This document shows positions 5,122 through 27,879 of a stretch of DNA of 27,879 bases, piece after piece; within the stretch, counting starts at the first letter, position 1; each line of letters begins with the position of its first letter. The notes beneath the pieces are model-generated. The model was not told the origin of the DNA and ran no database searches. It saw only the letters and a list, made by a program, of their open reading frames with translations. The position numbers were made by a program, and so were the translations under genes. This DNA comes from a virus: UHGV virus genome UHGV-2100961; one strand, 5' to 3'.

Positions 5122-5580
5122 ATGGCTTCCGATAACCTGGTCAGTATCACCATTAACGATAAATCCCTGCGCCGGAGCCTCCGTGCGCTGGATCTTGCTG
5201 CCACAGACCTGGAGCCCGCGATGCGCAAAATCGCCGGAACCCTGCTGGCGGAAACACAGTTTAACTTTCTTGATGAGGGGCGTCCGGGGTGGATCCCCTC
5301 GCTGGCAGCGGAAGAACGTGACGGGCAGACACTGCAGGATACCGGGCGTCTGATGGGGTCAGTATCAACCGACCATGACGACCGGCAGGCTGTTGTGGGG
5401 ACCAACGTTGTTTACGGTGCCATTCACCAGTTCGGGGGTAAAACGGGGCGTAATGAGTCTGTTGAACTTCCGGCCCGCCCGTTCCTGCCGGTGACGGGGG
5501 ATGGAGAACTACAGCCTGAAGTGGTAATCCCCATCCTCGATACCATTGTCCGCCATCTTGAATCAGCGGCCCGTCGCTGA
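5122..5580 (+). CDS. Virion morphogenesis protein, Mu G-like
   Basis: 152-aa ORF 3 nt after the F-like stop; followed by a 214-bp intergenic gap, as at the end of the first Mu late transcript. Confidence 0.75.
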   Translation: MASDNLVSITINDKSLRRSLRALDLAATDLEPAMRKIAGTLLAETQFNFLDEGRPGWIPSLAAEERDGQTLQDTGRLMGSVSTDHDDRQAVVGTNVVYGAIHQFGGKTGRNESVELPARPFLPVTGDGELQPEVVIPILDTIVRHLESAARR

Positions 5581-5639
5581 GTTTTCTCTCTTCAGGCGGG
5601 TGATTTATCATTGCCAGCGAATGAGGGGCTGTATTACCT

Positions 5640-5670
5640 TTATAAAGGCTTTACAGCCTCTGTTTTATAA
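5640..5670 (+). terminator. Palindrome / weak intrinsic terminator after the G-like gene
   Basis: TTATAAA-AGGCT-TTAC-AGCCT-CTG-TTTATAA: inner 5-bp stem-loop followed by TTTT, nested in an outer 7-bp dyad. Confidence 0.35.
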
Positions 5671-5710
5671 CCGCCTCCGGTTCACCGCATTGCTTTCCCT
5701 GTCCTTCTCC

Positions 5711-5745
5711 CCTGATGTTTTCTAAAGCAGATTAAAATCGCCGGG
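5711..5745 (+). promoter_or_regulatory. Candidate activator-dependent late promoter for the I/T head operon
   Basis: Good -10 hexamer TAAAAT at 5733-5738 with no recognisable -35 (CCTGAT), about 55 nt upstream of the I start; a poor -35 is the pattern expected for C-activated Mu late promoters. Confidence 0.2.
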
Positions 5746-5794
5746 CCTGCATTTCTCACAAACTGTCTCCGACAACATAACGCGGGACAGCAAA

Positions 5795-6910
5795 ATGTCA
5801 GCCATTCACATTTTTAAAGCCGGTACTCATACCGATATGCACGGCAAAAAACTGCCGTTCACGCCAGACGATCTTGCCGCCTGCGTGAAAGCCTATGACC
5901 CGTCCGTCCATGAAGCACCACTCGTGATTGGTCATCCCAGAACGGAAGACCCGGCGTGGGGCTGGGTGAAAGCCCTGTCGCTCAGCGGCGTCGATCTGAT
6001 GGCAGAGCCTGCCCAGCTGGACCCGCAGTTTGCTGAGATGGTCACCGACGGACGATTCAAAAAAGTGTCCGCCTCTTTCTACCTCCCGGATTCACCGTCC
6101 AATCCGAAGCCCGGCGTGCTCTACCTTCGCCATGTGGGCTTTCTCGGGGCACAGCCACCTTCCGTCAAGGGGCTGAAACAGGTGTCCTTCAGTGAGCAGG
6201 AAGAAGGTGTGGTGGAGTTCGCCGACTGGCAGGCCATCACGAATGCCTCCCTGTGGGGAAAGCTGCGCGATTTTCTGATCGCCCGCTTCAGTCTGGACGA
6301 GGCAGAAAAAGTCCTGCCGGAATGGCAGCTCAACAGTCTGCGCGAAGAGGCGTACCGCGACACACTGTCGCAGGATGCAGCAGGTGCACAATTCAGTGAG
6401 ACAGGCCCGGGGCCGTCTTCCGCAAGTAACGAGGAATCATCGATGACAAAAGAAGAGATTGAAGCCCTTCAGGAGGAGAACCGCCGCCTGAAGCAGCAGG
6501 CTGCTGATCGCGATGCGCGTGATGCACAGGTCAGACAGGAGCAACTGCATAAGGACAATGTGGCCTTTGCAGAAAAACTGGTCGCAGAGGGCCGTCTGGC
6601 TCCCCGCGCCTCCTCCGTGGTGGTTGCCCTGCTGGATGCCGTCGCCGGTGGCGACAAGCCGGTGGAGTTTGCTGAGGGGGAAAGCCGCACACCGCTGGCC
6701 ACCGCCTTTCGTTCATTGCTCTCCGACGGGGAGCCGGTGATGAATTTCGCCGAACAGGCCACAAAAGAGCGTGTCGGCGACACGGTGAAGGTGGATGTGG
6801 CAGAGTTTGCGGAAGCCGATCCTGAGCGTCTGGCCCTGCATCAGAAAGCAGTGGCCCTGTCCAAAAAAGAAGGCATCAGCTATGAGGCTGCTGTCGCACG
6901 CTGCCTGTAA
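5795..6910 (+). CDS. Head maturation protease / scaffold, Mu I-like
   Basis: 371-aa ORF; C-terminal third is a charged coiled coil (EEIEALQEENRRLKQQAADRDARDAQVRQEQL); lies immediately upstream of the major head gene. Confidence 0.8.
   Translation: MSAIHIFKAGTHTDMHGKKLPFTPDDLAACVKAYDPSVHEAPLVIGHPRTEDPAWGWVKALSLSGVDLMAEPAQLDPQFAEMVTDGRFKKVSASFYLPDSPSNPKPGVLYLRHVGFLGAQPPSVKGLKQVSFSEQEEGVVEFADWQAITNASLWGKLRDFLIARFSLDEAEKVLPEWQLNSLREEAYRDTLSQDAAGAQFSETGPGPSSASNEESSMTKEEIEALQEENRRLKQQAADRDARDAQVRQEQLHKDNVAFAEKLVAEGRLAPRASSVVVALLDAVAGGDKPVEFAEGESRTPLATAFRSLLSDGEPVMNFAEQATKERVGDTVKVDVAEFAEADPERLALHQKAVALSKKEGISYEAAVARCL
6443..6910 (+). CDS. Nested in-frame scaffold ORF (Mu Z-like) from an internal start within the I gene
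   Basis: In-frame ATG at 6443 preceded by GAGGAA (6431-6436) at 6-nt spacing; the product would be the coiled-coil C-terminal 155 aa. Confidence 0.4.
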   Translation: MTKEEIEALQEENRRLKQQAADRDARDAQVRQEQLHKDNVAFAEKLVAEGRLAPRASSVVVALLDAVAGGDKPVEFAEGESRTPLATAFRSLLSDGEPVMNFAEQATKERVGDTVKVDVAEFAEADPERLALHQKAVALSKKEGISYEAAVARCL

Positions 6911-6924
6911 TTTAAGGAGAGAGC

Positions 6925-7878
6925 ATGTCTGATTACTTAAAAGGTAAACGTGTCGTTGATCCGGTACTGACCAGTATCGCCCGTGGCTATAAAAATGCCG
7001 CATTCATCGGCGAACGTATTTTCCCCGTCGTGCTGACGGACAAGGAAGGCGTGCGTGTACCGACCTTCGGGAAAACCGCCTTTGTGGAATATGACACCGA
7101 GCGTGCCGTCGGGGCGGACAGCAATGTTCTGGTCCGTGAAAAAACAGGCACGCTGGACCTGGTGCTGGGTGAACACGATCTGGCTGCGCCGGTGGACTAT
7201 CGCGAGCAGGCGGAGTCCATGTTTAACGAAGAGAGCAAGGCCATCCGTCGCGCCACGAATGGCGTGAACCTGCGCCGTGAACTTATCGCTGCCCGTCTGG
7301 CTCAGGATGAAAAGGTCTACCGTACCGGGCACGTCAAAAAACTGACAGCCAGTGATCGCTGGGCCGGTGGTAAGGGGGACCCCATCGGGGTGATTGAAGC
7401 CGGTATGGAAGCGGTCCGTACGGCCACGGGGCTGCGTCCTAACCTGATGACCATGGGGGCCGGCGTGATGGCGCTGCTGAAGTTCCACCCGGCGATTCAG
7501 GCCGCCATCGGAGCCAACGAACGCAAGCGCATCACCACAGAAATCCTGCAGGACCTCTTTCAGATCGAAGAGATCGTCATCGGTGCCCCAGTCTCCCTGC
7601 CGTCCATGAAAGCGGCAATGGATAAGAACAGCGTGCCGGCGGATATCTGGGGAGACAATCTGATGCTGCACTATGTCGGCAAACCGCAGCCGGGGGCGGA
7701 CAGCGCGGACGAGAACGAGCCGTCCTTCGGCTACACCCTGCGTCGTAAGGGGATGCCTGTTGCCGACAAATACGACGGAGCCGGTGGCAAGGTGAAGTAC
7801 TGCCGTTATACCGATATCTACAAAGTCGCCGTGGTTGGTGGCGATGCCGGGTATCTCATTACCGGTATCAGTAAATAA
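6925..7878 (+). CDS. Major head subunit (Mu T-like)
   Basis: 317-aa ORF with a strong RBS (TAAGGAGAGAG) 14 nt after the I stop; size and position of the Mu-like major capsid gene. Confidence 0.85.
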   Translation: MSDYLKGKRVVDPVLTSIARGYKNAAFIGERIFPVVLTDKEGVRVPTFGKTAFVEYDTERAVGADSNVLVREKTGTLDLVLGEHDLAAPVDYREQAESMFNEESKAIRRATNGVNLRRELIAARLAQDEKVYRTGHVKKLTASDRWAGGKGDPIGVIEAGMEAVRTATGLRPNLMTMGAGVMALLKFHPAIQAAIGANERKRITTEILQDLFQIEEIVIGAPVSLPSMKAAMDKNSVPADIWGDNLMLHYVGKPQPGADSADENEPSFGYTLRRKGMPVADKYDGAGGKVKYCRYTDIYKVAVVGGDAGYLITGISK

Positions 7879-7887
7879 GGAGGCGTT

Positions 7888-8226
7888 ATGGGAACCACTC
7901 AGCAGGTCATTCTGATCACAACCGTAACGGCAGGGGCAGCACTGGCACAGCAGCGTTTTGTCGGGGCAGATAATACCCCCTGTAAAGCCGGTGCCGCAGC
8001 GCTCGGGGTTGCCGAAGTGGATGCTGTTACCGGCGACAGCACGCCGGTGAGCGTTCTGGGCATTATTGCTGTCGAGGCCGGGGCCGCTGTCAGCCGTGGT
8101 GTGGCTGTTCAGTCAGATGCTCAGGCCAGAGCCGTGCCGCAGTCCGGCGACGGTAAATCCTGTGGTATTGCACTTGATGAAGCCGGGGGTGAAGGCGACG
8201 TCATTCGTATCCTGCGCGGGGTGTGA
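7888..8226 (+). CDS. Small Gly/Ala/Val-rich protein (Mu gp35 position; possible head accessory/decoration protein)
   Basis: 112-aa ORF with a strong RBS (AAGGAGG) directly after the capsid gene; low-complexity Ala/Gly/Val-rich composition. Confidence 0.6.
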   Translation: MGTTQQVILITTVTAGAALAQQRFVGADNTPCKAGAAALGVAEVDAVTGDSTPVSVLGIIAVEAGAAVSRGVAVQSDAQARAVPQSGDGKSCGIALDEAGGEGDVIRILRGV

Positions 8227-12201: not shown

Positions 12202-15153
12202 ATGTCGGGACAGTTTTCAGTCGGCGTTGTTATCGGCGGGATGATTGGCAGCACATTCCGTTCTGCAATGAGCGGTACCCGCCGTGCGCTTGATTCCCTG
12301 AGCGATACCTCACGCCGCCTGCAGGAACGTCAGAACGCTTTAACCCGTGCAACAGAACGTTATGGTCAACTGGGTTCTTCCCGGATGCAGCATCTCAACA
12401 GCGAGCTGCTGCGGGTAAGCCGCACCATGGAGCAAATTGAGCGCCAGCAGCGCCGTCTGTCAGCGGCATCCGCTACCAGTGATGCGCTGAAAGCTAACCG
12501 CATGGCGCTGTATGGTCAGGGGATTGAAGCGTATGGCATGGCACAGACTGTTTATCATACGGTTTCCCCTGCCGTTCAGCAGTCCATGTCTTTTCAGGAC
12601 AAAATGATTGATATGTCGATCACCGCAAAATATGACAATAAAACGCGGGATGCACTTGCCGGACAGATAAAAGGCTGGGCGCTTAAATACAATCAGTATC
12701 AGGATGAGCTGCAGGAGGCGGTGGGTTCACTCATCAGCGACAATATTGATAATGTGTCAGATATCGGTTTTCTGATGCCGGATATTGCCCGCGCGGCAAC
12801 GGCAACACGCACGTCTGCTCAGGACTGGGCAAAAGTGGCCGCAGTCTGGCAAAACTCCCTGAAAGGTGCGGCCAGAGATTTTGGTGCCGTTCAGAATATT
12901 ATGGCTTATGCCGGTGACCAGGGGTCATTTGAAATCCCGGATCAGGTCAAGTGGATGCAGTCCCTGGCCCCAATGATGGCGGGTATTGCCAGTGGAAAAG
13001 AGGCTGTTGCTGAAATCGGGGCCAGTCTCCAGATAGCAAAAATCGGTGCAGGTTCCACCGACGAAGCAGCTAATAATTTTAAAAACTTTCTTACCAAAAT
13101 TTTTGCCCGCGATACTCAGAAACAGTTTGCTGATCTGGGTATTGATTTGCAGGGATCTATTGCGAGTTATAAAGCTGCGGGGATCTCTCCGATTGAAGGG
13201 ATGTTGAGTGTTATAGAACGTTACCTCAATGCCAAAAGCCCCGAAGCGCTGGCCGGCTTCAAATCAGCCATGAAAATAAAGAATGATACGGCAAGAGATG
13301 AGGCACTTCAGGCTCTGGCGAAAAACTTTGGTCTGGGCGATATGTTCGCGGATATGCAGGTCATGGCATTTATCCGCCCGATGCTGGCCAACATGGACAG
13401 ATATCGAGAGATCCGTGCCGGTGCTCTCAGGGCTGCGGATAACGATTTGCTTGCCAGTGCTTATGATCAGCGGCTGAAATCTCCCCTTGAAGCCACTAAA
13501 ACACTTATGGTCAGCAGTCGCGATCTGGCAATTACGCTGGGCGATCAATTAGCTCCATCTTTTATTTCTTTGACTCAGGAACTGCTTCCACTCATTCAGG
13601 GGGCAAAACACTGGGTAGCGACTCACCCGCAATTTGTCAGTGGGGCTTTTAAGCTCATCAGTGCGCTCCTTGCGATTAAGATAGCGACTGTTGGTCTCAA
13701 ACTGGGGCTGAATCTCCTTATTTCCCCCTTTGTAAGTGTCTGGAAAAATGCTGTTTTACTTCGGGCCAACTGGCTTCGTCTGTCGCTCGCACTGGGGCAA
13801 GGCGGTAAGCTCCGCTGGCTGGTGACCGGATTTAGCGCCGTCGCCAGAGGAGCCAGAACACTGAGTGGCGTGCTCTCCGGGGGGCTGGTTCGCGGAATTA
13901 TGCTCGCCGGACGTGCTGTTCTCTGGATTGGACGTGCGCTGATGATGAATCCCATCGGTCTCGTTATCACCGCTGTCGCGGCAGCAGCTTACCTTATCTA
14001 CCGCAACTGGGGGGCAGTCAGTGGCTGGTTTAAACAGCGCTGGGCAGACATTCAGGAAGCCTTTAACGGCGGCATTGTGGGAATTGGTAAGTTACTGATT
14101 AACTGGTCGCCGGCAGGCCTGCTCTATAAAGCCTTTGCGGCTGCGCTGAAATATTTCGGCGTTGCTCTGCCGGCAAAGTTCACCGACTTCGGTGGCCATC
14201 TTATCGACGGTCTGATTAACGGTATCAAAAACAAATGGGGGTCGCTCAAATCCAGTGTAACCGGAATGGGTGACAGCATCAGTAGCTGGTTTAAACAGTG
14301 CTGGGCTGACATTCAGGAAGCCTTTAACGGCGGTATCGCGGGAACTGGTAAGCTGCTGATTAACTGGTCGCCGGCAGGTCTGCTCTATAAAGCCTTTGCA
14401 GCTGCGCTGAAATATCTTGGTGTTGATCTGCCGGCAAAGTTCACCGACTTCGGTGGCCATCTTGTCGACGGTCTGATTAACGGTATCAAAAACAAATGGG
14501 AGTCGCTCAAATCCAGTGTAACCGGAATGGGTGACAGCATCAGTGGCTGGTTCAGCGAAAAGCTGGGCATTCATTCGCCGAGCCGCGTGTTTATGGGCTT
14601 TGGTGACAATATCGCGCAGGGGGCCGCCATTGGCCTGCAGCGGACCACTCCGCTTGCAGCTCTGGCCGGGCAGCGAATGGCCAGTGAACTGCTCCCCAGA
14701 ATGCCCGTGAGCATTCAGGGGCCAGAAATACGGGATAACACTTCAGGTGTTCGCTTCAGTATGCCGTTGCCCGATATCAATGGGTTTATGTCGTCTGCTA
14801 AAAATGCGATCGGAGCCGTAATCAATAGTTTGTCTTCCATGCCCGCTATCCCGCTCTCCACCCGGGCATCGATTTTACCAGGGCAACGTCTGGCAAATGA
14901 GATGACACCGGATGTTCCCCGTATCCCCTCGCCTGAAATCATGGCTGCCGGATATTCAGGCCGTGGTGCAGCTGCAACCGGCGGTGGAACGTCTGGTGGT
15001 ATCCAGGTCAGCTTTAATCCTCAGTTTTTCCTCAATGGCAGGGAAACCACAGCGCCTGCAGGACTGACTGGTGCCCTGAATATGAGTCTGCATGAGCTGG
15101 AAAAAATGCTGGAGCGTCTGCTGGCTCAGAAACAACGTAAGGAGTACCGCTGA
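12202..15153 (+). CDS. Tail tape measure protein
   Basis: 983-aa ORF after the chaperone; coiled-coil N-terminus, hydrophobic Gly-rich central segments, internal tandem duplication. Confidence 0.85.
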   Translation: MSGQFSVGVVIGGMIGSTFRSAMSGTRRALDSLSDTSRRLQERQNALTRATERYGQLGSSRMQHLNSELLRVSRTMEQIERQQRRLSAASATSDALKANRMALYGQGIEAYGMAQTVYHTVSPAVQQSMSFQDKMIDMSITAKYDNKTRDALAGQIKGWALKYNQYQDELQEAVGSLISDNIDNVSDIGFLMPDIARAATATRTSAQDWAKVAAVWQNSLKGAARDFGAVQNIMAYAGDQGSFEIPDQVKWMQSLAPMMAGIASGKEAVAEIGASLQIAKIGAGSTDEAANNFKNFLTKIFARDTQKQFADLGIDLQGSIASYKAAGISPIEGMLSVIERYLNAKSPEALAGFKSAMKIKNDTARDEALQALAKNFGLGDMFADMQVMAFIRPMLANMDRYREIRAGALRAADNDLLASAYDQRLKSPLEATKTLMVSSRDLAITLGDQLAPSFISLTQELLPLIQGAKHWVATHPQFVSGAFKLISALLAIKIATVGLKLGLNLLISPFVSVWKNAVLLRANWLRLSLALGQGGKLRWLVTGFSAVARGARTLSGVLSGGLVRGIMLAGRAVLWIGRALMMNPIGLVITAVAAAAYLIYRNWGAVSGWFKQRWADIQEAFNGGIVGIGKLLINWSPAGLLYKAFAAALKYFGVALPAKFTDFGGHLIDGLINGIKNKWGSLKSSVTGMGDSISSWFKQCWADIQEAFNGGIAGTGKLLINWSPAGLLYKAFAAALKYLGVDLPAKFTDFGGHLVDGLINGIKNKWESLKSSVTGMGDSISGWFSEKLGIHSPSRVFMGFGDNIAQGAAIGLQRTTPLAALAGQRMASELLPRMPVSIQGPEIRDNTSGVRFSMPLPDINGFMSSAKNAIGAVINSLSSMPAIPLSTRASILPGQRLANEMTPDVPRIPSPEIMAAGYSGRGAAATGGGTSGGIQVSFNPQFFLNGRETTAPAGLTGALNMSLHELEKMLERLLAQKQRKEYR
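14026..14547 (+). repeat. In-frame tandem duplication inside the tape-measure gene (2 x 261 bp, 87 aa each)
   Basis: Anchor TGGTTTAAACAG at 14026 and 14287 (period 261); encoded units WFKQRWADIQEAFNGGIVGIGKLLINWSPAGLLYKAF.. and WFKQCWADIQEAFNGGIAGTGKLLINWSPAGLLYKAF.. are near-identical; a third partial start (GWFSEK) at 14548. Confidence 0.85.
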
Positions 15154-20053: not shown

Positions 20054-21349
20054 ATGGGAAACCTGAATGAAACAGAAAAGTGGGAAGAAAATATCTATCA
20101 ACTGGAGACATCAGATCCGGTTCTGGGTGGTGCAGACGGGATATCAAATCGAGCCCCCCGGCAACTGGCAAACAGGACGAAATGGCTGAAGAAAAAAACG
20201 GAGGAAGCCGCACAGTCACTGGCTGAACACGTACGTTCCCGTAACCACCCGGACGCGACACTGACAGCTAAGGGGTTCACCCAACTGAGCAGTGCCACCA
20301 ACAGCACCTCTGAAACGCTGGCCGCCACACCAAAAGCCGTCAAGGCTGCATACGACCTTGCAGCCGGCAAGGCGCCCGTCAGCCACACTCACCCGTGGAG
20401 TCAGATAACGGGAGTGCCTGCGGCTTCACTGACGGCAAAAGGCACCGTACAACTGAGCAGCGCCACGGACAGTCAATCAGAAACTGAGGCTGCCACGCCG
20501 AAGGCGGTCAAGGCTGCATACGACCTTGCAGCCGGCAAGGCGCCCGTCAGCCACACTCACCCGTGGAGTCAGATAACGGGAGTGCCTGCTGCCTCGCTGA
20601 CGGCAAAAGGCACCGTACAATTGAGCAGTGCCATCAACAGCACGTCTGAAATACTGGCCGCCACACCGAAAGCGGTCAAGGCTGCATACGATCTGGCAAA
20701 CGGAAAACAACCGGCAGATGCCACGCTCACTGCTCTGGCAGGACTTGCCACTGCAGCAGATCGGTTGCCTTATTTTACCGGAGCAGACCGCGCAGCGCTG
20801 GCAACCCTTACAGCTATTGGTCGCGCTATTATCGCTAAGGGCAGTATAAAAGATGTCCTCAATTACCTTGGTTTGGGGGAAGGCTCTGCATTGCCTGTTG
20901 GTGTACCGGTTCCATGGCCCACCGCCACACCGCCAGCAGGCTGGTTACAGTGCAACGGAGCTACGTTCACCAAAGAACAATATCCTGTTCTGGCCAGAGT
21001 CTACCCGACCCTCCGTCTTCCCGATTTGCGCGGTGAGTTTATCCGTGGATGGGATGACGGACGAAAGATTGACACCGGGCGTGCCCTGCTAAGCAGCCAG
21101 AGCGGAATGATTGAGAAACACCGTCATATTGTTGTTGCCAATGATGGTTACGACACAAAAGATGAATGGGAACTGGCTGCGATTTTCAAAAAAACATACA
21201 CACAAGGACGAGGACTTGATGCCACAAATACAGGAGGGAGTCTGACCCCATCACCAACACTTCATTCGCGAGGGAGTATCGGTAATACTGGCGGGAGGGA
21301 AACCCGTCCACGAAATATTGCCTTTAACTACATTGTCAGGGCGGCCTAA
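20054..21349 (+). CDS. Tail fibre protein (constant N-terminus, repeat shaft, C-terminal tip cassette 1)
   Basis: ATG 20054 (RBS GGGAG); three 56-aa shaft repeats; C-terminal region has the LPDLRGEFIRGWDDGRK motif and ends ..RPRNIAFNYIVRAA. Confidence 0.85.
   Translation: MGNLNETEKWEENIYQLETSDPVLGGADGISNRAPRQLANRTKWLKKKTEEAAQSLAEHVRSRNHPDATLTAKGFTQLSSATNSTSETLAATPKAVKAAYDLAAGKAPVSHTHPWSQITGVPAASLTAKGTVQLSSATDSQSETEAATPKAVKAAYDLAAGKAPVSHTHPWSQITGVPAASLTAKGTVQLSSAINSTSEILAATPKAVKAAYDLANGKQPADATLTALAGLATAADRLPYFTGADRAALATLTAIGRAIIAKGSIKDVLNYLGLGEGSALPVGVPVPWPTATPPAGWLQCNGATFTKEQYPVLARVYPTLRLPDLRGEFIRGWDDGRKIDTGRALLSSQSGMIEKHRHIVVANDGYDTKDEWELAAIFKKTYTQGRGLDATNTGGSLTPSPTLHSRGSIGNTGGRETRPRNIAFNYIVRAA
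20261..20700 (+). repeat. 168-bp (56-aa) in-frame tandem repeats in the tail-fibre shaft, about 2.6 copies
   Basis: Anchor CAAGGCTGCATACGA at 20341, 20509 and 20677 (period 168); encoded units LTAKG.. QLSSA.. AATPKAVKAAYDLAAGKAPVSHTHPWSQITGVPAAS. Confidence 0.85.
20868..20947 (+). repeat. Direct repeat copy A (80 bp, identical to 21353..21432) at the constant/variable junction of the fibre gene
   Basis: TTGGTTTGGGGGAAGGCTCTGCATTGCC..CAGGCTGGTTA read identically at both positions; about 90% similarity continues for another ~120 bp. Confidence 0.85.
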
Positions 21350-21352
21350 ACG

Positions 21353-21432
21353 TTGGTTTGGGGGAAGGCTCTGCATTGCCTGTTGGTGTACCGGTTCCAT
21401 GGCCCACCGCCACACCGCCAGCAGGCTGGTTA
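21353..21432 (+). repeat. Direct repeat copy B (80 bp, identical to 20868..20947) at the 5' end of silent tip cassette 2
   Basis: Same 80-mer begins 4 nt after the fibre stop codon. Confidence 0.85.
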
Positions 21433-21870
21433 AAGTGCGACGGGCGCGCCTTTACAAAAGAACAATATCCTGTTCTGGCCAGAGCCTACCCGACCCTCCG
21501 TCTTCCTGATTTACGCGGTGAGTTTATCCGTGGATGGGACGACGGGCGCAAAGTTGATACAGGACGTAAGTTGCTGTCCGCACAAGGGGCAACGCTGTTA
21601 AGAACAGCAATGCTGGATTATTATAACCAGGACACTACGGGAACCTCGGGGATAGTCGGCATGGGATTCAACAATGAAGATTCCATTACAGACCTTCGTG
21701 AGGGCAGCTTTAAAATGCCGGACGGGACAACATTCAGCGATCCTGTCATAGTAATGTCAGACAATGGTATGCAGGCTACTATTCTGACCTCTATCAGAAG
21801 CGGGTATGCGAAGGGTATCACTGTCAGACCCCGTAGCATTGCACTTAATTACATTGTGAGGGCAGTTTAA
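21353..21870 (+). other. Silent alternative tail-fibre C-terminal tip cassette 2 (no ATG or RBS of its own)
   Basis: Open frame encoding GEGSALPVGVPVPWPTATPPAGWLKCDGRAF..LPDLRGEFIRGWDDGRKVDTGR..RPRSIALNYIVRAV, paralogous to residues ~275-432 of the fibre; only a TTG codon at 21358, no SD. Confidence 0.7.
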
Positions 21871-22484
21871 TGAGTAACACTGCAGTTCTGGATGAAAACG
21901 GTATCGCCACTGTAGCGGGCGATATCACTGTATATCACTATGACGAGGAAACCCGGGAATACACCTCATCCTCTGTGGAGTATCTCGCCCTTGGGGTGGG
22001 TACTCCGGCACATTCGTGCGCCGATGCACCGCCGGAGGCAATTTCGGGTTACGTGGTTTGTCGGACTGCCACGCTGAACGGGTGGGAGCATGTGCCTGAT
22101 CACCGCGGCGAGACGGTATACAGCACGGAGAACGGTAACCCCGTTCTGATTACCCAACCGGGTGATTACCCGGCGGACACCACCACAAAACAGCCAGCCA
22201 CGCCATGGGATACCTGGAACGGTGAGGCGTGGGTAACCGATACTGAACGGCAGCGAGCCGCAGAACTGGAGGTTGCCAGACAGCAACGCCAGCAACGGGT
22301 GAAACAGGCGATGGCGTCCGTCGATCTTATCAACCTCAAACTGCGTGCTGGTCGCAGTCTGAAACCAGAAGAAACGGCAAAACTGAACGCCGTGCTGGAT
22401 TATATCGACGAGCTGAACGCACTGGATATCAGCAAGGCACCTGAAATCAGCTGGCCGGAAGCGCCACTGGCACTTGCCAGTTGA
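21870..22484 (+). CDS. Tail fibre assembly protein (Tfa/U-like chaperone)
   Basis: 204-aa ORF; ATG overlaps the cassette-2 stop (TAATG); N-terminal MSNTAVLDENGIATVAGDITVYHYDEETREY and Gln/Arg-rich helical C-terminus typical of Tfa proteins. Confidence 0.75.
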   Translation: MSNTAVLDENGIATVAGDITVYHYDEETREYTSSSVEYLALGVGTPAHSCADAPPEAISGYVVCRTATLNGWEHVPDHRGETVYSTENGNPVLITQPGDYPADTTTKQPATPWDTWNGEAWVTDTERQRAAELEVARQQRQQRVKQAMASVDLINLKLRAGRSLKPEETAKLNAVLDYIDELNALDISKAPEISWPEAPLALAS

Positions 22485-22490
22485 ACGGTA

Positions 22491-22826
22491 TCACGCCGCC
22501 CTCACGATATAGTTAAACGCGATATTGCGGGGGCGGGTTATGTTAAAGAATGCTCCGTTTAATTCGGCTTTTGCGCGACTGTTTGTTTCACCCAGCATTG
22601 CGTACCACAAATAATCGCTACGGTAATTCCCCGCAAACACCTTATCGCCGCCATAGTCAATATTATTTCCGTTACTCATGTACGAGATATCAAGCGCAGA
22701 ATCGTTATCGTCATGACCGCCGACCAGTGTACCTTTCTGCCATGAAAGCAACTTACGCCCCTCGTCAATCTTGCGCCCGTCATCCCATCCACGGATAAAC
22801 TCACCGCGCAAATCGGGAAGACGGAG
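22491..22826 (-). pseudogene. Inverted tail-fibre tip cassette 3, 5'-truncated by the IS21-family element
   Basis: Minus-strand frame encodes ..LRLPDLRGEFIRGWDDGRKIDEGRKLL..RPRNIAFNYIVRAA*; the 50 nt at 22777..22826 are the exact reverse complement of 21011..21060; homology stops at 22826/22827. Confidence 0.7.
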
Positions 22827-22891
22827 TATTAGACGTCAACTAGTTTTGCCGACTCGCGCCAACTATACTGGCCGCACCCTTCAGTGCGACA

Positions 22892-23647
22892 TCAAGTCGC
22901 GCTTGTTACTGCCTTCGCTGTCTTTTTCCTGTAGCTTTCACCTTTCAGTTCGAACATATATCCGTGATGGATCAGCCGGTCTGCCGCCGCCACCGCCATA
23001 GTCTCATCCACGAAGATGCTGCCCCACATGCTGAACGGATGGTTACTGGTTATCACCAGGCTCCCACGTTCATAGCGATGCGCTATTAACTCGAACAGTA
23101 CTCCCGTTTCGGCGCTGTCGCGTTTGACATAGCCAAGATCATCCACCACTATCACCCGGTAGCGATCCAGTTTCAGTAGCAGCTCATTCAGTTTCAACTG
23201 CGCTCTGGCTTTACGTAGTTCCTGCAACAACTCTCCTGCGCTGTAGAACCGGGCCCGGTAGCCCTGGCCTACTACGCCATCCACGATCGCTGCCGCCAGA
23301 TGGCTTTTCCCCAACCCGCTGGCTCCGAACAGCAGAACGTTTTCTCCTGCATCAACCCAGTCTGTCGTTTCACAGAGTTGCCGGAACTGAGCTCCATTCA
23401 GTTCCGGCACCTGACTGAAGTCGTATTCGCTTAGCGTTTTGGCAACTGGCAACCGGGCCTCCTTTTTATAACGACGCAGTTTTTCACTCTCGCGCCACAG
23501 GAGTTCTTCATTGCATAGCGTCAGAAGATAGCGCGATGGTGTCCAGCCTTCTGCCAGTGCTCGTTTTTCCAGAGCGTGCCATTCAGCTCCAACTCGTGTC
23601 AGGCGTAGTTTACGCAGGCTGCGTTCAAGGTGATGGATATTGCTCAC
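22892..23647 (-). CDS. istB: IS21-family ATP-binding helper protein IstB
   Basis: 251-aa ORF with Walker A (GASGLGKSH) and Walker B (VIVVDDLG) motifs and the C-terminal ..LKGESYRKK.. segment typical of IstB. Confidence 0.85.
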   Translation of the reverse strand: MSNIHHLERSLRKLRLTRVGAEWHALEKRALAEGWTPSRYLLTLCNEELLWRESEKLRRYKKEARLPVAKTLSEYDFSQVPELNGAQFRQLCETTDWVDAGENVLLFGASGLGKSHLAAAIVDGVVGQGYRARFYSAGELLQELRKARAQLKLNELLLKLDRYRVIVVDDLGYVKRDSAETGVLFELIAHRYERGSLVITSNHPFSMWGSIFVDETMAVAAADRLIHHGYMFELKGESYRKKTAKAVTSAT

Positions 23648-25143
23648 TGCGAACCGCCCTTGCCACGCAGTAGTTGCTCATAACTGCTCAGGTTATGCTG
23701 TTTCACATTGACTACCGGCAACGCCTTTTCCTTTATACCCAGGAAGCGCATCAGCCGGTGCAGATCCACGTTTCCCGGGGTATTCAGCATCTGCTCCATA
23801 CCTTTTGCCACGACTGAGATATCGTCGTATCCTGCAGCCAGTTTCAGAGCATGTACCATCAGCCTGCCTGCCATGTCGGGTTCCAGATGATTACATAAGC
23901 GACGCCACAGCCTCCGCCATTCATCGTCTGGCAGGATGTCATTTCTCAGCGTTGCATGGCAGAACGCACCGGGCTTTTTTGCCAGACTGTCGATCACATG
24001 TCGGAAGTCGATACGACGGGCCCGCGTCTTCCCTTTTTCTGGTCTGACACGTGGGCAGCTCATGACCTCGCTGCTGCCAACGTAACAGCTCAGACGATCG
24101 TCCCATAACCGGACCCGTAACAGTTGACCTACAAGCCGGGAAGGTACGCTGTAGACGACGTGCTTCACATTGATGGTACTGCTGCGGCTAACCCTCACAG
24201 TCAGCTCATCATAGTCAGCACTGCGACGAAGCGGCAGCGGTTTCAGATGAAGACGTTCTTCCTTGACCAGATCCTGATTGTTACGGTTGTGCCGCATAAC
24301 CTGCTGAGTGATGAAGGCCTGATATTCTTCTATGGTGCTGAAGTCGTTACTGCCCCGCAGTATCAGCGCCTGACAGATACGCCTTTTCAGATGTCCGTGG
24401 GCACTTTCAACCGAGCCATTTTCGTGGCCCCGACCGGCATTATTGTGTACGCCCTGCATTCCGTAGTGCTGACAGAGAGCAGCATAACGCTCAGTCAGCT
24501 CGCGGCGTCCATCTTCGCCCTGTTGTTTCCATGCTGCCCTCAGGCTGTCCGTTTTATGTTCTACCGGCACTCCGCCCAGTTGTCCGAGGGCTTCCTGCAG
24601 ACCTTCAGCCAGAGCAGAGAAGCTCTCACCACCCAGCACAACCCGCATCCAGCTCCAGTGGCTCCATTCCAGACGGAAGTGATACAACTTATGCGCCAAC
24701 AACTTACCGGCGATGGTGACAACTACACCTTTCAGTTCAGTAAAGTCCGACAGACCTCGCAGACCGGGCTGATGTCGCTGGCGGAACATGACCTCCTGCT
24801 CTGCACCATACTGTAGCTTCCATTCGCGGACCCGCCGTTGCATTGTTCTTCGAAGGCTGTTGGGGTACTGGCCGGGATATTTATCCTGTAGCATCTCCAG
24901 CAGAGTTGTTGGTGTCAGAGCCGGCCTCTCTTTCAACAGAGGAACAAGCATGCTGTCCCACACAGCTTCCAGAGGATCTTTGCGTGTGCGCCAGTGCCGA
25001 ACACTGTTTTTTGCCCACTCTCCTTTTTCGATCCGACGACCAGAACGGACTGAGATACCAGCCTTCATGGCCGAGATATGCTGAGTTATACCTTTCTTAC
25101 GCTGAGTCATATAGTAACTGACCTGAGAAGTATTGAGCGTCAC
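23644..25143 (-). CDS. istA: IS21-family transposase IstA
   Basis: 499-aa ORF immediately upstream of, and overlapping by 4 nt, an IstB-like ATPase gene; operon architecture diagnostic of IS21-family elements. Confidence 0.8.
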   Translation of the reverse strand: MTLNTSQVSYYMTQRKKGITQHISAMKAGISVRSGRRIEKGEWAKNSVRHWRTRKDPLEAVWDSMLVPLLKERPALTPTTLLEMLQDKYPGQYPNSLRRTMQRRVREWKLQYGAEQEVMFRQRHQPGLRGLSDFTELKGVVVTIAGKLLAHKLYHFRLEWSHWSWMRVVLGGESFSALAEGLQEALGQLGGVPVEHKTDSLRAAWKQQGEDGRRELTERYAALCQHYGMQGVHNNAGRGHENGSVESAHGHLKRRICQALILRGSNDFSTIEEYQAFITQQVMRHNRNNQDLVKEERLHLKPLPLRRSADYDELTVRVSRSSTINVKHVVYSVPSRLVGQLLRVRLWDDRLSCYVGSSEVMSCPRVRPEKGKTRARRIDFRHVIDSLAKKPGAFCHATLRNDILPDDEWRRLWRRLCNHLEPDMAGRLMVHALKLAAGYDDISVVAKGMEQMLNTPGNVDLHRLMRFLGIKEKALPVVNVKQHNLSSYEQLLRGKGGSQ

Positions 25144-25200
25144 GCCATTTCCTGTTGGATCATGTAAATGACACTCAGGTTACAAAACCGGCCAGAATAA

Positions 25201-26226
25201 TCGGCGCCAGGCGGACTGAGTTATTGTCGTCTCATAGTAACCGATCCCGCAGAAGCGTCCCGGCTGATTCGTCGGGGACATCTGACTTATACTCAGGCCC
25301 GTAATATCACCCGGTTCGGGACCATCGAATCGGTCACTTATGATATTGCCGAGGGTTCGGTTGTCAGTCTGGCGGCCGGAGGGATCAGTTTTGCCCTGAC
25401 GGCATCGGTCTTCTGGCTCAGCACCGGCGATCGCGATGCTGCCCTGCAGACAGCTGCTGTCCAGGCAGGAAAAACCTTCCCCCGCACACTGGCTGTCTAC
25501 GTCACAACCCAGCAACTCCACCGGCTCAGTGTTGTTCAGGGTATGCTGAAGCACATTGATTTTTCGACTGCCAGCCCGACTGTCCGACTGGCTCTTCAGA
25601 AGGGGACCGGTGCAGGAAATATCAGTGCCCTGAACAAAGTAATGAAGGGTACGCTGGTGACATCTCTGGCACTGGTAGCTGTCACAACCGGCCCTGACAT
25701 GATCAAAATGTTGCGGGGACGGATCTCCGGTGCGCAGTTCATCAGGAATCTTGCCGTGGCATCTTCCGGTGTGGCAGGTGGAGCTGTCGGGTCAGTGGCG
25801 GGCGGGATACTGTTCAGTCCACTGGGACCATTTGGTGCACTGACAGGGCGTGTGGTTGGCGGTGTTCTGGGGGGAATGATTGCCTCCGCTGTATCAGGAA
25901 AAATTGCCGGAGCGCTGGTTGAAGAAGATCGCGTCAAAATTCTGGCAATGATTCAGGAGCAGGTGACATGGCTTGCCGGCAGTTTCCTGCTGACCGGACA
26001 TGAGATTGAAAATCTGAACGAGAATCTGGCCCGTGTTATCGATCAGAATGCTCTGGAGATCATTTTCGCCGCCGGTATACAACAACGGGCCGCGACCAAT
26101 ATGTTAATCAAACCACTGGTGGTCAGTATCATCAGGCAACGCCCCGTCATGGAATATGATGCATCCCATCTCGGCAATATGGTTAACCGGCTGGAAGAAG
26201 CATTACCCCCGGAGTTACCGGCATAA
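25201..26226 (+). CDS. Glycine-zipper membrane protein ORF, probably 5'-truncated at the IS junction (alternatively a 227-aa protein from ATG 25543)
   Basis: Frame is open for 114 codons upstream of the first ATG back to the IS edge with no in-frame ATG/GTG/TTG; contains GVAGGAVGSVAGGILFSPLGPFGALTGRVVGGVLGGMIASAVSG (GxxxG repeats); no family assigned. Confidence 0.45.
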   Translation, partial: SAPGGLSYCRLIVTDPAEASRLIRRGHLTYTQARNITRFGTIESVTYDIAEGSVVSLAAGGISFALTASVFWLSTGDRDAALQTAAVQAGKTFPRTLAVYVTTQQLHRLSVVQGMLKHIDFSTASPTVRLALQKGTGAGNISALNKVMKGTLVTSLALVAVTTGPDMIKMLRGRISGAQFIRNLAVASSGVAGGAVGSVAGGILFSPLGPFGALTGRVVGGVLGGMIASAVSGKIAGALVEEDRVKILAMIQEQVTWLAGSFLLTGHEIENLNENLARVIDQNALEIIFAAGIQQRAATNMLIKPLVVSIIRQRPVMEYDASHLGNMVNRLEEALPPELPA

Positions 26227-26301
26227 CGGCTATTCTGCGCCTTTTACGCTTTATCACCTGATTTGTCAGTGTCATCGTCATGACTCAGAGAGGTAAATAC
26301 C

Positions 26302-26757
26302 ATGATTCACCTGTTCAAAACCTGCATGATTACCGCCTTCATTCTGGGGTTAACGTGGTCTGCCCCACTCCGGGCACAGGATCAACGTTACATCAGTATA
26401 CGCAATACAGATACGATATGGCTCCCGGGAAATATTTGTGCTTACCAGTTCCGGCTGGATAATGGCGGAAACGGTGAAGGATTTGGCCCCCTCACCATCA
26501 CTCTGCAACTCAAAGACAAATATGGTCAGACGCTGGTGACCAGAAAAATGGAAACGGAAGCTTTTGGTGACAGTAATGCCACGCGAACCACAGACGCATT
26601 TCTGGAAACGGAGTGCGTGGAAAATGTCGCCACAACCGAAATCATTAAAGCAACTGAAGAAAGTAACGGCCATCGTGTCAGTCTGCCGTTATCGGTTTTC
26701 AATCCCCAGGACTACCATCCACTGCTGATTACCGTTTCCGGAAAAAACGTTAACTGA
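26302..26757 (+). CDS. Small secreted/periplasmic protein of unknown function
   Basis: 151-aa ORF with RBS AGAGAGG; N-terminal signal-peptide-like sequence (MIHLFKTCMITAFILGLTWSAPLRAQDQ); followed by a strong terminator. Confidence 0.65.
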   Translation: MIHLFKTCMITAFILGLTWSAPLRAQDQRYISIRNTDTIWLPGNICAYQFRLDNGGNGEGFGPLTITLQLKDKYGQTLVTRKMETEAFGDSNATRTTDAFLETECVENVATTEIIKATEESNGHRVSLPLSVFNPQDYHPLLITVSGKNVN

Positions 26758-26781
26758 TCCCTGAAGTCAGTTTCATGCTTC

Positions 26782-26820
26782 AGCCTCTGTCACAACGCGT
26801 GGCAGAGGCTTTTTATTTAT
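26782..26820 (+). terminator. Rho-independent terminator
   Basis: AGCCTCTGTC / GGCAGAGGCT 10-bp stem with 9-nt loop, followed by TTTTTATTTAT. Confidence 0.75.
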
Positions 26821-26839
26821 CAGGAGAAAACAGATATGC

Positions 26840-27879
26840 GTAAGCGTGCAGCAAGAACCGTATTGACGGGGATGTGTTATTCAGTCGGCAGTGCTACGCG
26901 CCAGGGGAGCAGTTCGCCGACCCGGTTTATCGGCCAGTCGGCTATGACGTCAAGGACATAGCGGAGGTAGCTTTCTGGCTCCACTCCGTTCAGTTTGCAC
27001 GTCCCGATCAGGCTGTACAGCAGCGCTCCCCGCTCTCCTCCATGATCCGAACCGAAGAACAGGTAGTTTTTGCGGCCCAGACTGACCATCCGCAACGCAT
27101 TTTCAGCGATGTTATTGTCCGCCTCAGCCCAGCCATCATCTGCATAGTACGTCAGCGCCGGCCACTGGTTCAGGGCGTATGCGAACGCTTTCGCCAGTTC
27201 TGAGTGTCGCGACAGGGTTTTCATCTTTTCACGCAGCCAGCTTTCCAGGGATTTCAGCAGCGGTTTCGTTTTCAACTGACGTTCGGCAAGGCGCTGCTCC
27301 GCCGTCATTCCCCTTATCTCTGCCTCGATGGCGTACAGTTCGCCGATCCGTTTCAGCGCTTCCTCCGTCAGGGCTGACGGGGTGCGAACGTGCACATCGT
27401 GGATTTTACGGCGGGCATGAGCCCAACAGGCGGCTTCCGTTATCCGGTCATCCCGGTACAGCTCGTTGAACCCGGCGTATGCATCCGCCTGCAGTACACC
27501 ACTGAACCCCGCAAGATGGGTCTGCGGATGGATGCCTTTTCTGTCCGGGCTGTAAGCGAACCACACCGCCGGCGCCAGCGTTGACCCGGCGTTACGGTCG
27601 TCACGAACGTAGGTCCATAACCGCCCGGTCTTCGTTTTCTTATTGCCTGGCAACAGCACCGGGACAGGCGTGTCATCAGCATGGAGCTTACCGTCAGTCA
27701 GCACATAGTCCTGAAGCGCCTCTTCCAGCGGAGACAGCAGCCGGCAGCATGCATCCACCCAGCCCGACAGCAGTGAACGGCTCAGCTCCACACCTTGCCG
27801 ACCGTATATTTCTGACTGGCGATACAGCGGGGTGTGCTCTGCATACTTCGAGGTCAGCACGCGGGCCAGCAGCCCCGGT
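26840..27879 (-). mobile_element. IS66-family element, terminal ~1 kb (continues beyond the window)
   Basis: Terminus begins GTAAGCGTGCAGCAAG at about 26840, 37 nt from the end of a TnpC-like transposase ORF that runs off the window edge. Confidence 0.7.
26877..27879 (-). CDS. IS66-family transposase (TnpC-like), C-terminal portion; N-terminus outside the window
   Basis: Minus-strand ORF of at least 327 aa ending ..[22 protein letters not shown]..; recognised as the IS66-type transposase C-terminal region; frame still open at the window edge. Confidence 0.75.

Follow-up and report, generated by a model that had tools for sequence, protein, structure and literature searches.

The viral sequence UHGV-2100961 (27,879 nucleotides; the whole stretch is called the window) carries part of an Escherichia coli prophage that runs into a copy of the insertion sequence (IS) ISEc10, beyond which lies DNA of a pathogenicity island. 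The sequence shows directly that this IS copy is a hybrid, with its left flank coming from an ISEc10 insertion in the third tail-fibre cassette of the prophage and its right flank from another ISEc10 insertion in the island gene yeeR. We give about even chances to the view that a real homologous recombination between two ISEc10 copies made the joint. The observation is either a correct view of ordinary biology or an artefact, and nothing in it goes beyond known kinds, given that ISEc10, IS hybrids from recombination between IS copies, invertible fibre cassettes, and BcepMu-like phages are all known already.

The two flanks of the window IS differ. ACGGAG abuts it on the left (22821..22826) and GTAACC on the right (25237..25242), and the partner of each is absent from the window. 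All eight other ISEc10 copies compared are bordered by perfect 6-bp target duplications (GATCAG, GGCGTG, GTAACC, ACGGAG, GAAGAC, GGAGCC, AATCCC, and GGCACC). Removing the IS leaves flanks that are not contiguous, a phage fibre cassette on the left and yeeR from codon 510 onward on the right. We looked for matching duplications and for a phage right end just beyond the IS, the arrangement of a simple ISEc10 insertion in a complete prophage, and neither is present in the window. The right flank holds yeeR, irmA, and ISEc22, none of them phage, and the window has neither the invertase gene gin nor the right end. The probability of such a simple insertion is negligible in our view, and the preliminary description was right to treat the flanks as unrelated DNA.

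Each junction is one side of a different simple insertion with its own duplication. The left junction is identical over 40 bp to a simple cassette-3 insertion in GCA_900448165.1 (locus L009), found via an exact look-up of the 106-amino-acid open reading frame (ORF) of the truncated cassette, which occurs identically in 40 collection blocks. Beyond the IS, L009 repeats ACGGAG and continues with the start of cassette 3, cassette 1, gin, and potG. Among 5426 complete E. coli genomes the cassette-3 insertion junction is carried by MS 21-1 only (NZ_CP146670.1, L024), again as a simple insertion with ACGGAG on both sides. At about position 12497 of L024 (window 22822) the MS 21-1 record reads GACGGGAG where the window and L009 read GACGGAG, one extra G before the IS terminus; this 1-bp homopolymer difference may be a sequencing error of MS 21-1. 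On the right, the window junction is identical to the yeeR insertion of MS 21-1 (L005), where GTAACC stands on both sides of an ISEc10 in the same orientation, and window positions 22827-26839 differ from that locus (island copy 1) by 1 mismatch in 4013 bp. Both parent insertions occur together in MS 21-1, in GCA_900448165.1 (L009 and L021), and in GCA_964039125.1 (L012 and L022). The window copy has no matching duplication because each of its flanks goes back to a different insertion. The missing duplication concerns the history of this copy, not its membership in the IS21 family or in ISEc10.

The element itself is a complete ISEc10 of 2410 bp on the minus strand (22827..25236). It encodes the transposase IstA (499 amino acids, 23644..25143, minus strand) and the helper ATPase IstB (251 amino acids, 22892..23647, minus strand). 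In profile searches IstA matched NF033546 with 227 bits (cut-off 160, E=3.4e-67) and IstB matched NF038214 with 266.7 bits (cut-off 200). The istB gene lies directly downstream of istA and the two overlap, the stop of istA at 23644 overlapping the start of istB at 23647. The longest inverted repeat of the region pairs 22827-22874 with 25189-25236 (48 nt, 71% complementary), and eight independent ISEc10 copies have the same termini, starting with TATTAGACG and ending with CGTCTCATA. Hundreds of contexts, on many E. coli chromosomes and plasmids, hold the span in full length at 100% identity, with the PGAP gene label 'ISEc10 family'. The preliminary description had already recognized an IS21-family element, which both profile matches bear out, and its left terminus at exactly 22827 agrees with the fibre homology to relatives, which reaches 22826 and goes on past that point in the relatives. 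Its right end, given as 25200, has to be moved 36 bp further, to 25236, on the evidence of the inverted repeats and the eight other copies.

A fresh transposition event offers one way to such a joint, if one ISEc10 end attacked nearby DNA and deleted the interval from the fibre cassette to yeeR. In its favour, the window copy has no target duplication, and ISEc10 is active in CFT073, where new insertions near lpp were selected (PMC7482066). However, both junctions are already known from ordinary insertions, each with a duplication of its own, in a prophage 99.9% identical to this one, so that a new event is unnecessary. It would also have to strike the exact base of the existing cassette-3 insertion, and 2.69 Mb separate the two loci in MS 21-1, a span whose loss would remove essential genes. 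We regard this route as very improbable. The IS-associated deletion or rearrangement that had been proposed for this DNA therefore holds as a rearrangement in general and is unlikely as a deletion, since both junctions pre-exist as simple insertions and both do so in MS 21-1.

Homologous recombination would start from these same insertions. One ISEc10 would have duplicated ACGGAG on entering the silent cassette 3 of a Bcepmuvirus-like transposable prophage at potG, and another would have duplicated GTAACC on entering yeeR of a pathogenicity island; both steps are seen in relatives. RecA-type recombination between the two inverted copies would then have swapped their flanks. The MS 21-1 parents lie on opposite strands, at about 3,540,387-3,542,796 (window orientation +) and about 843,287-845,696 (-), 2.69 Mb apart. 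In a chromosome of this kind the exchange would invert about 2.69 Mb across the terminus and bring together the 3' part of cassette 3, ISEc10, and the 3' part of yeeR. The start of cassette 3 with its crossover site, gin, and the 78-bp right end would come to lie in the reciprocal joint, at the opposite end of the inverted stretch. With parents inverted and so far apart, a real event would thus be an inversion that moves the right end (about 0.87 kb) elsewhere rather than deleting it. A single exchange between the MS 21-1 parents reproduces the order and strands of the window exactly. The phage part, 99.93-99.97% identical to the MS 21-1 prophage, also places the window in this lineage, and ISEc10 is both multicopy and active. 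Inversions by homologous recombination between inverted IS copies are familiar from IS1 and IS150 in long-term E. coli cultures and from the IS-rich genomes of Shigella and Yersinia, and the IS hybrids left by recombination between IS copies are standard. That the contig reads through a 2.4-kb multicopy IS suggests long-read data, in which false joins at such a place are uncommon.

Several points weigh against a real exchange. The MS 21-1 record starts at dnaA, and with this layout the inversion would span the terminus asymmetrically and leave replication arms of roughly 34:66, an imbalance that is tolerable but usually counter-selected. The hybrid joint is found in none of the 5426 complete genomes. 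Single-nucleotide polymorphisms (SNPs) within the IS are uninformative, as the window IS is identical to both MS 21-1 copies, and the two variants of the NCTC-type genome are in both of its copies. With no SNPs to distinguish the copies, the crossover point cannot be mapped. A 35-mer across the left junction is absent from the genome, viral, and metagenome contig collections, and a 36-mer across the right junction is absent from the viral contig collection. A further point is a second unusual join 1.6 kb to the right of the first, taken up below.

An assembly chimera would give the same joint. In this case the source, like MS 21-1, has both simple insertions, and the assembler or scaffolder went into ISEc10 at the prophage flank and came out at the yeeR flank. 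Such a wrong exit from a 2.4-kb multicopy IS gives exactly the window sequence, and both flanks are indeed exact simple-insertion junctions that co-occur in three assemblies. The repeat is present at 9 places in MS 21-1 with 99.9-100% identity, and many public contigs stop exactly at this end of the IS (L010, L014-L018). The absence of the joint from the complete genomes and the strongly unbalanced chromosome that a real event implies, as read from the dnaA-start layout, point in the same direction. Yet short-read assemblers normally stop at such repeats, and long-read assemblers rarely misjoin at 2.4 kb.

The right flank bears on this as well. It begins with the 3' part of a yeeR-family gene (25237..26226, plus strand, codons 510-838 of 838), position 25237 corresponding to 7001 of L002 within a YeeR family coding sequence at 5474..7990. 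The first in-frame start of this remnant gives a 227-amino-acid ORF (25543..26226). Next comes irmA (26302..26757, plus strand, 151 amino acids, PF18673), for which all matches are annotated as IrmA family protein, and then a partial ISEc22 of the IS66 family (26840..27879, minus strand, NF033517 on 26877..27860) that is cut by the window end. The order is that of the usual Ag43-yeeR-irmA module of CP4-44-like islands. ISEc22 sits at the start-codon region of a DUF905 gene, with the same junction as in L002, L008, and island copy 2 of MS 21-1. This ISEc22 site at the DUF905 start is common to about 216 complete genomes.

The second unusual join lies here. The yeeR and irmA segment is of the island-copy-1 type, yet ISEc22 is placed as in island copy 2, with just 138 bp of shared sequence between the last copy-1-specific SNP and the ISEc22 join. 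The irmA-ISEc22 join may be a second one made through a repeat, or it may result from gene conversion between the island copies. Were the window a chimera, the assembler may have jumped a second time ahead of ISEc22, out of island copy 1 into island copy 2, and the window end, which falls inside ISEc22, fits a chimera too. A mosaic of the two MS 21-1 island copies with a single clean switch does not, however, account for the segment, because position 26474 is copy-2-like and position 26701 copy-1-like, and the allele at 26474 is also found in a copy-1-type island without ISEc22 (L029).

The tail-fibre gene S offers a last point on the assembly. Its constant part contains in-frame tandem repeats of about 168 bp (56 amino acids) at window 20282-20698. 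The window has 468 bp fewer of these repeats than MS 21-1, and the S product has 431 amino acids against 599-655 in near-identical prophages. This could be repeat collapse during assembly, which would favour a chimera, or natural variation, since the repeat number does vary among relatives within that range (599 to 655 amino acids). Look-up of the exact S protein in its 433- and 431-amino-acid forms found no record. Taking these points together, we rate a chimera as a serious possibility, though clearly below an even chance. The fuller reading, of a natural E. coli of the MS 21-1 lineage that carries an asymmetric inversion of about 2.7 Mb made by ISEc10 across the terminus, we put just short of even. 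In such a strain the transposable prophage would be split, with the invertase and right end megabases away from an intact 37-kb phage body and the three-cassette switch locked on one receptor-binding variant.

Searches for other carriers of the two junctions turned up related insertions. Look-ups of the 227-amino-acid yeeR ORF and of the IrmA variant led to many islands, none with phage DNA left of the IS. Most genomes with ISEc10 in yeeR are not carriers of the GTAACC insertion. Their site is GATCAG, a second independent insertion in the same orientation at window 25383-25388, 146 bp downstream of the GTAACC site (L003 6153-8562), present in about 20 complete genomes. The gene yeeR thus seems to be a repeated ISEc10 target. 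In the MS 21-1 parent island (L005 6669-8006) only 117 bp of yeeR remain left of the IS and border on a truncated iutA beside sat, the trace of an older rearrangement at this spot. CEA106S was considered as the origin of the window and rejected: it gave the best right-flank match and its IS is 100% identical, but its ISEc10 is 17 kb off, within the afa/dra operon, and it has an intact yeeR. On the left side, the P1-like phage-plasmid pe1-39_A (NZ_AP040955.1) does not carry the left junction; its own fibre cassettes were hit by a separate ISEc10 insertion with the duplication GGCGTG (L004 9119-11528), in a fibre region where at least nine tail-protein cassette genes are annotated. Arrays of fibre cassettes look like places where ISEc10 lands repeatedly. 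The L012 contig of GCA_964039125.1 (CAXJFM010000010.1, 3103 bp) consists of one ISEc10 and a 693-bp segment of the fibre assembly gene U and the cassette-3 3' part, circularly permuted, which implies either that the strain has a further ISEc10 copy within U (flank GGATTT) or that the contig is a circle that was excised.

The fibre region in which the phage part ends has, in relatives, a constant S part, three alternative C-terminal cassettes, one assembly gene U, and a serine invertase gene last. In the window the expressed S gene joins the constant part to cassette 1 (20054..21349, plus strand, 431 amino acids; an intact ORF when aligned to the relatives). The silent cassette 2 follows (21358..21870, plus strand, 170 codons), with a collar-domain C-terminus (PF07484, found on the identical ORF in L010). 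U is intact (21870..22484, plus strand, 204 amino acids) and is annotated in relatives as a tail fiber assembly protein. Of the inverted cassette 3 only the C-terminal 336 bp are left (22491..22826, minus strand, aligned to L006 38686-39021), with an ORF at 22491..22811 from a TTG start. Cassette 3 is complete in L001 and L006; in the window the IS removes the N-terminal part of about 144 bp together with the crossover site. An intact phage in the window's state would continue past 22826 with these roughly 144 bp including the crossover site TAAACGTTGGTTTGGGGG, a spacer of about 70 bp, gin (573 bp), and the 78-bp right end, which together make up about 0.87 kb.

None of this continuation is found in the window. 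A tblastn search for gin gave E=1.5, and a blastn search showed cassette paralogues only. The statement that beyond the IS there is no further cassette 3, invertase, or phage end was therefore accurate, as was the statement that the prophage, in the sequence as given, lacks its right end. Of the two phage ends, the right is absent and the left lies outside the window.

The inversion state of the region differs among genomes. The constant part is joined to cassette 3 in RIVM_C036569, to cassette 2 in MS 21-1 and L009, to an IS-interrupted cassette 3 in L010, and to cassette 1 in the window. These are four states across the genomes, and in L010 the IS interrupts the expressed S gene. The crossover-type sequence CCTTGGTTTGGGGGAAGG at about 20866 is repeated at the start of cassette 2. 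Two crossover sites remain in the window, one at about 20866 and one at about 21350; they are directly oriented to each other, and that of cassette 3 has been removed. An adjacent serine invertase and inverted crossover sites, the marks of a Gin-type segment, are both present in relatives and both missing in the window. With neither the invertase gene nor the only inverted partner site, the switch would be frozen. It should be locked on cassette 1, because the remaining sites are direct, the only inverted partner has been lost, and neither gin nor the enhancer inside it is nearby; a frozen switch would follow from established Gin/Hin biology. The three cassettes share the single gene U after cassette 2, cassettes 1 and 3 having no chaperone gene of their own (window 20866-22826; L006 38540-40637; L024 9745-15540). 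U stands in the wrong direction when cassette 3 is expressed.

The rest of the phage part is well preserved. Window positions 1-20505 align without gaps to the hyfJ prophage of RIVM_C036569 at 99.5% identity and, again without gaps to 20505, the phage part is 99.93-99.97% identical to the potG prophage of MS 21-1. It is 99% identical over 89% to Escherichia phage PhiKM, which is classed as Bcepmuvirus. All 25 late genes are intact, as are S, cassette 2, and U among the window ORFs, so the late structural module is whole, as had been thought. In the relatives, a leftward early operon encodes a DDE transposase, an ExeA/MuB-like ATPase, Gam, and Mor, and the phage ends read TGAT...ATCA between 6-bp host duplications (AACAGA at hyfJ, CCTTTA at potG). 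Transposase, ATPase, early genes, varied insertion sites, and TG...CA ends, the hallmarks of a transposable prophage, are thus all found in relatives that are 99.5-99.97% identical. The phage is thus a BcepMu-type transposable phage with its early operon inverted relative to Mu, and not Mu proper. On this point the preliminary description, which had taken Mu as its model, needs revision. It had also counted a mom-like gene among the losses. We reject such a loss, for the gene order of intact relatives closes with gin, 78 bp short of the phage end and with no mom gene after it, so that none is expected in this phage group. The tape-measure gene contains an internal direct repeat of about 290 bp with about 92% identity (window 14000-14552), which the relatives have too.

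What the joint means for the phage depends on its origin. If it is real, the phage body keeps its head, tail, and lysis genes, and the right end lies far away and flipped. Transposition of the Mu type needs both ends correctly paired on one DNA domain. With the right end distant and flipped, the ends would no longer form a correctly oriented pair, and by analogy with Mu, transposition or replication as a unit should fail. If the joint is chimeric, the prophage is as in MS 21-1, complete and with an IS in a silent cassette. Extrapolating from Mu biology, a 2.4-kb IS in a genome packaged by the headful mechanism may by itself leave the 78-bp right end unpackaged, and even the simple-insertion prophage of MS 21-1 may then give defective particles.

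A real joint would be an example of an IS that, by sitting inside a prophage, provides portable homology. Phage mobility would have been inactivated without touching the structural genes, a host-range switch frozen, and half a chromosome rearranged; the example would be useful and the principle not new. An artefactual joint would be instructive in another way, as mismatched half-duplications around a multicopy IS would then be a cheap flag, readable from sequence only, for a joint to be checked at the level of reads before a prophage is called defective.

In comparison with known systems, the element agrees with ISEc10 at 100% over 2410 bp, in its istA-istB pair, in its terminal inverted repeats, and in sharing the termini of eight other copies; it differs in having no matching 6-bp duplication. 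The phage part is near-identical to BcepMu-like phages (Bcepmuvirus; PhiKM), whose DDE transposase, ExeA/MuB-like ATPase, Gam, Mor, and TGAT...ATCA ends are found in the relatives. Unlike them, the window copy has no right end attached, and its left end and early genes lie outside the window. The fibre region resembles the Mu G/Gin, P1 C/Cin, and p15B Min systems in its constant fibre part, alternative C-terminal cassettes, U-type gene, varied inversion states, and, in relatives, adjacent serine invertase. It differs in having three cassettes but one assembly gene and, in the window, in having neither the invertase gene nor the only inverted partner site. Like established IS-IS inversions, the window case combines a hybrid IS with mismatched half-duplications, inverted parents, and both parent junctions kept in relatives. 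It stands apart from them in being known from sequence alone, in the unusual asymmetry predicted for its inversion (2.69 Mb, arms about 34:66), and in having one endpoint in a prophage fibre switch.

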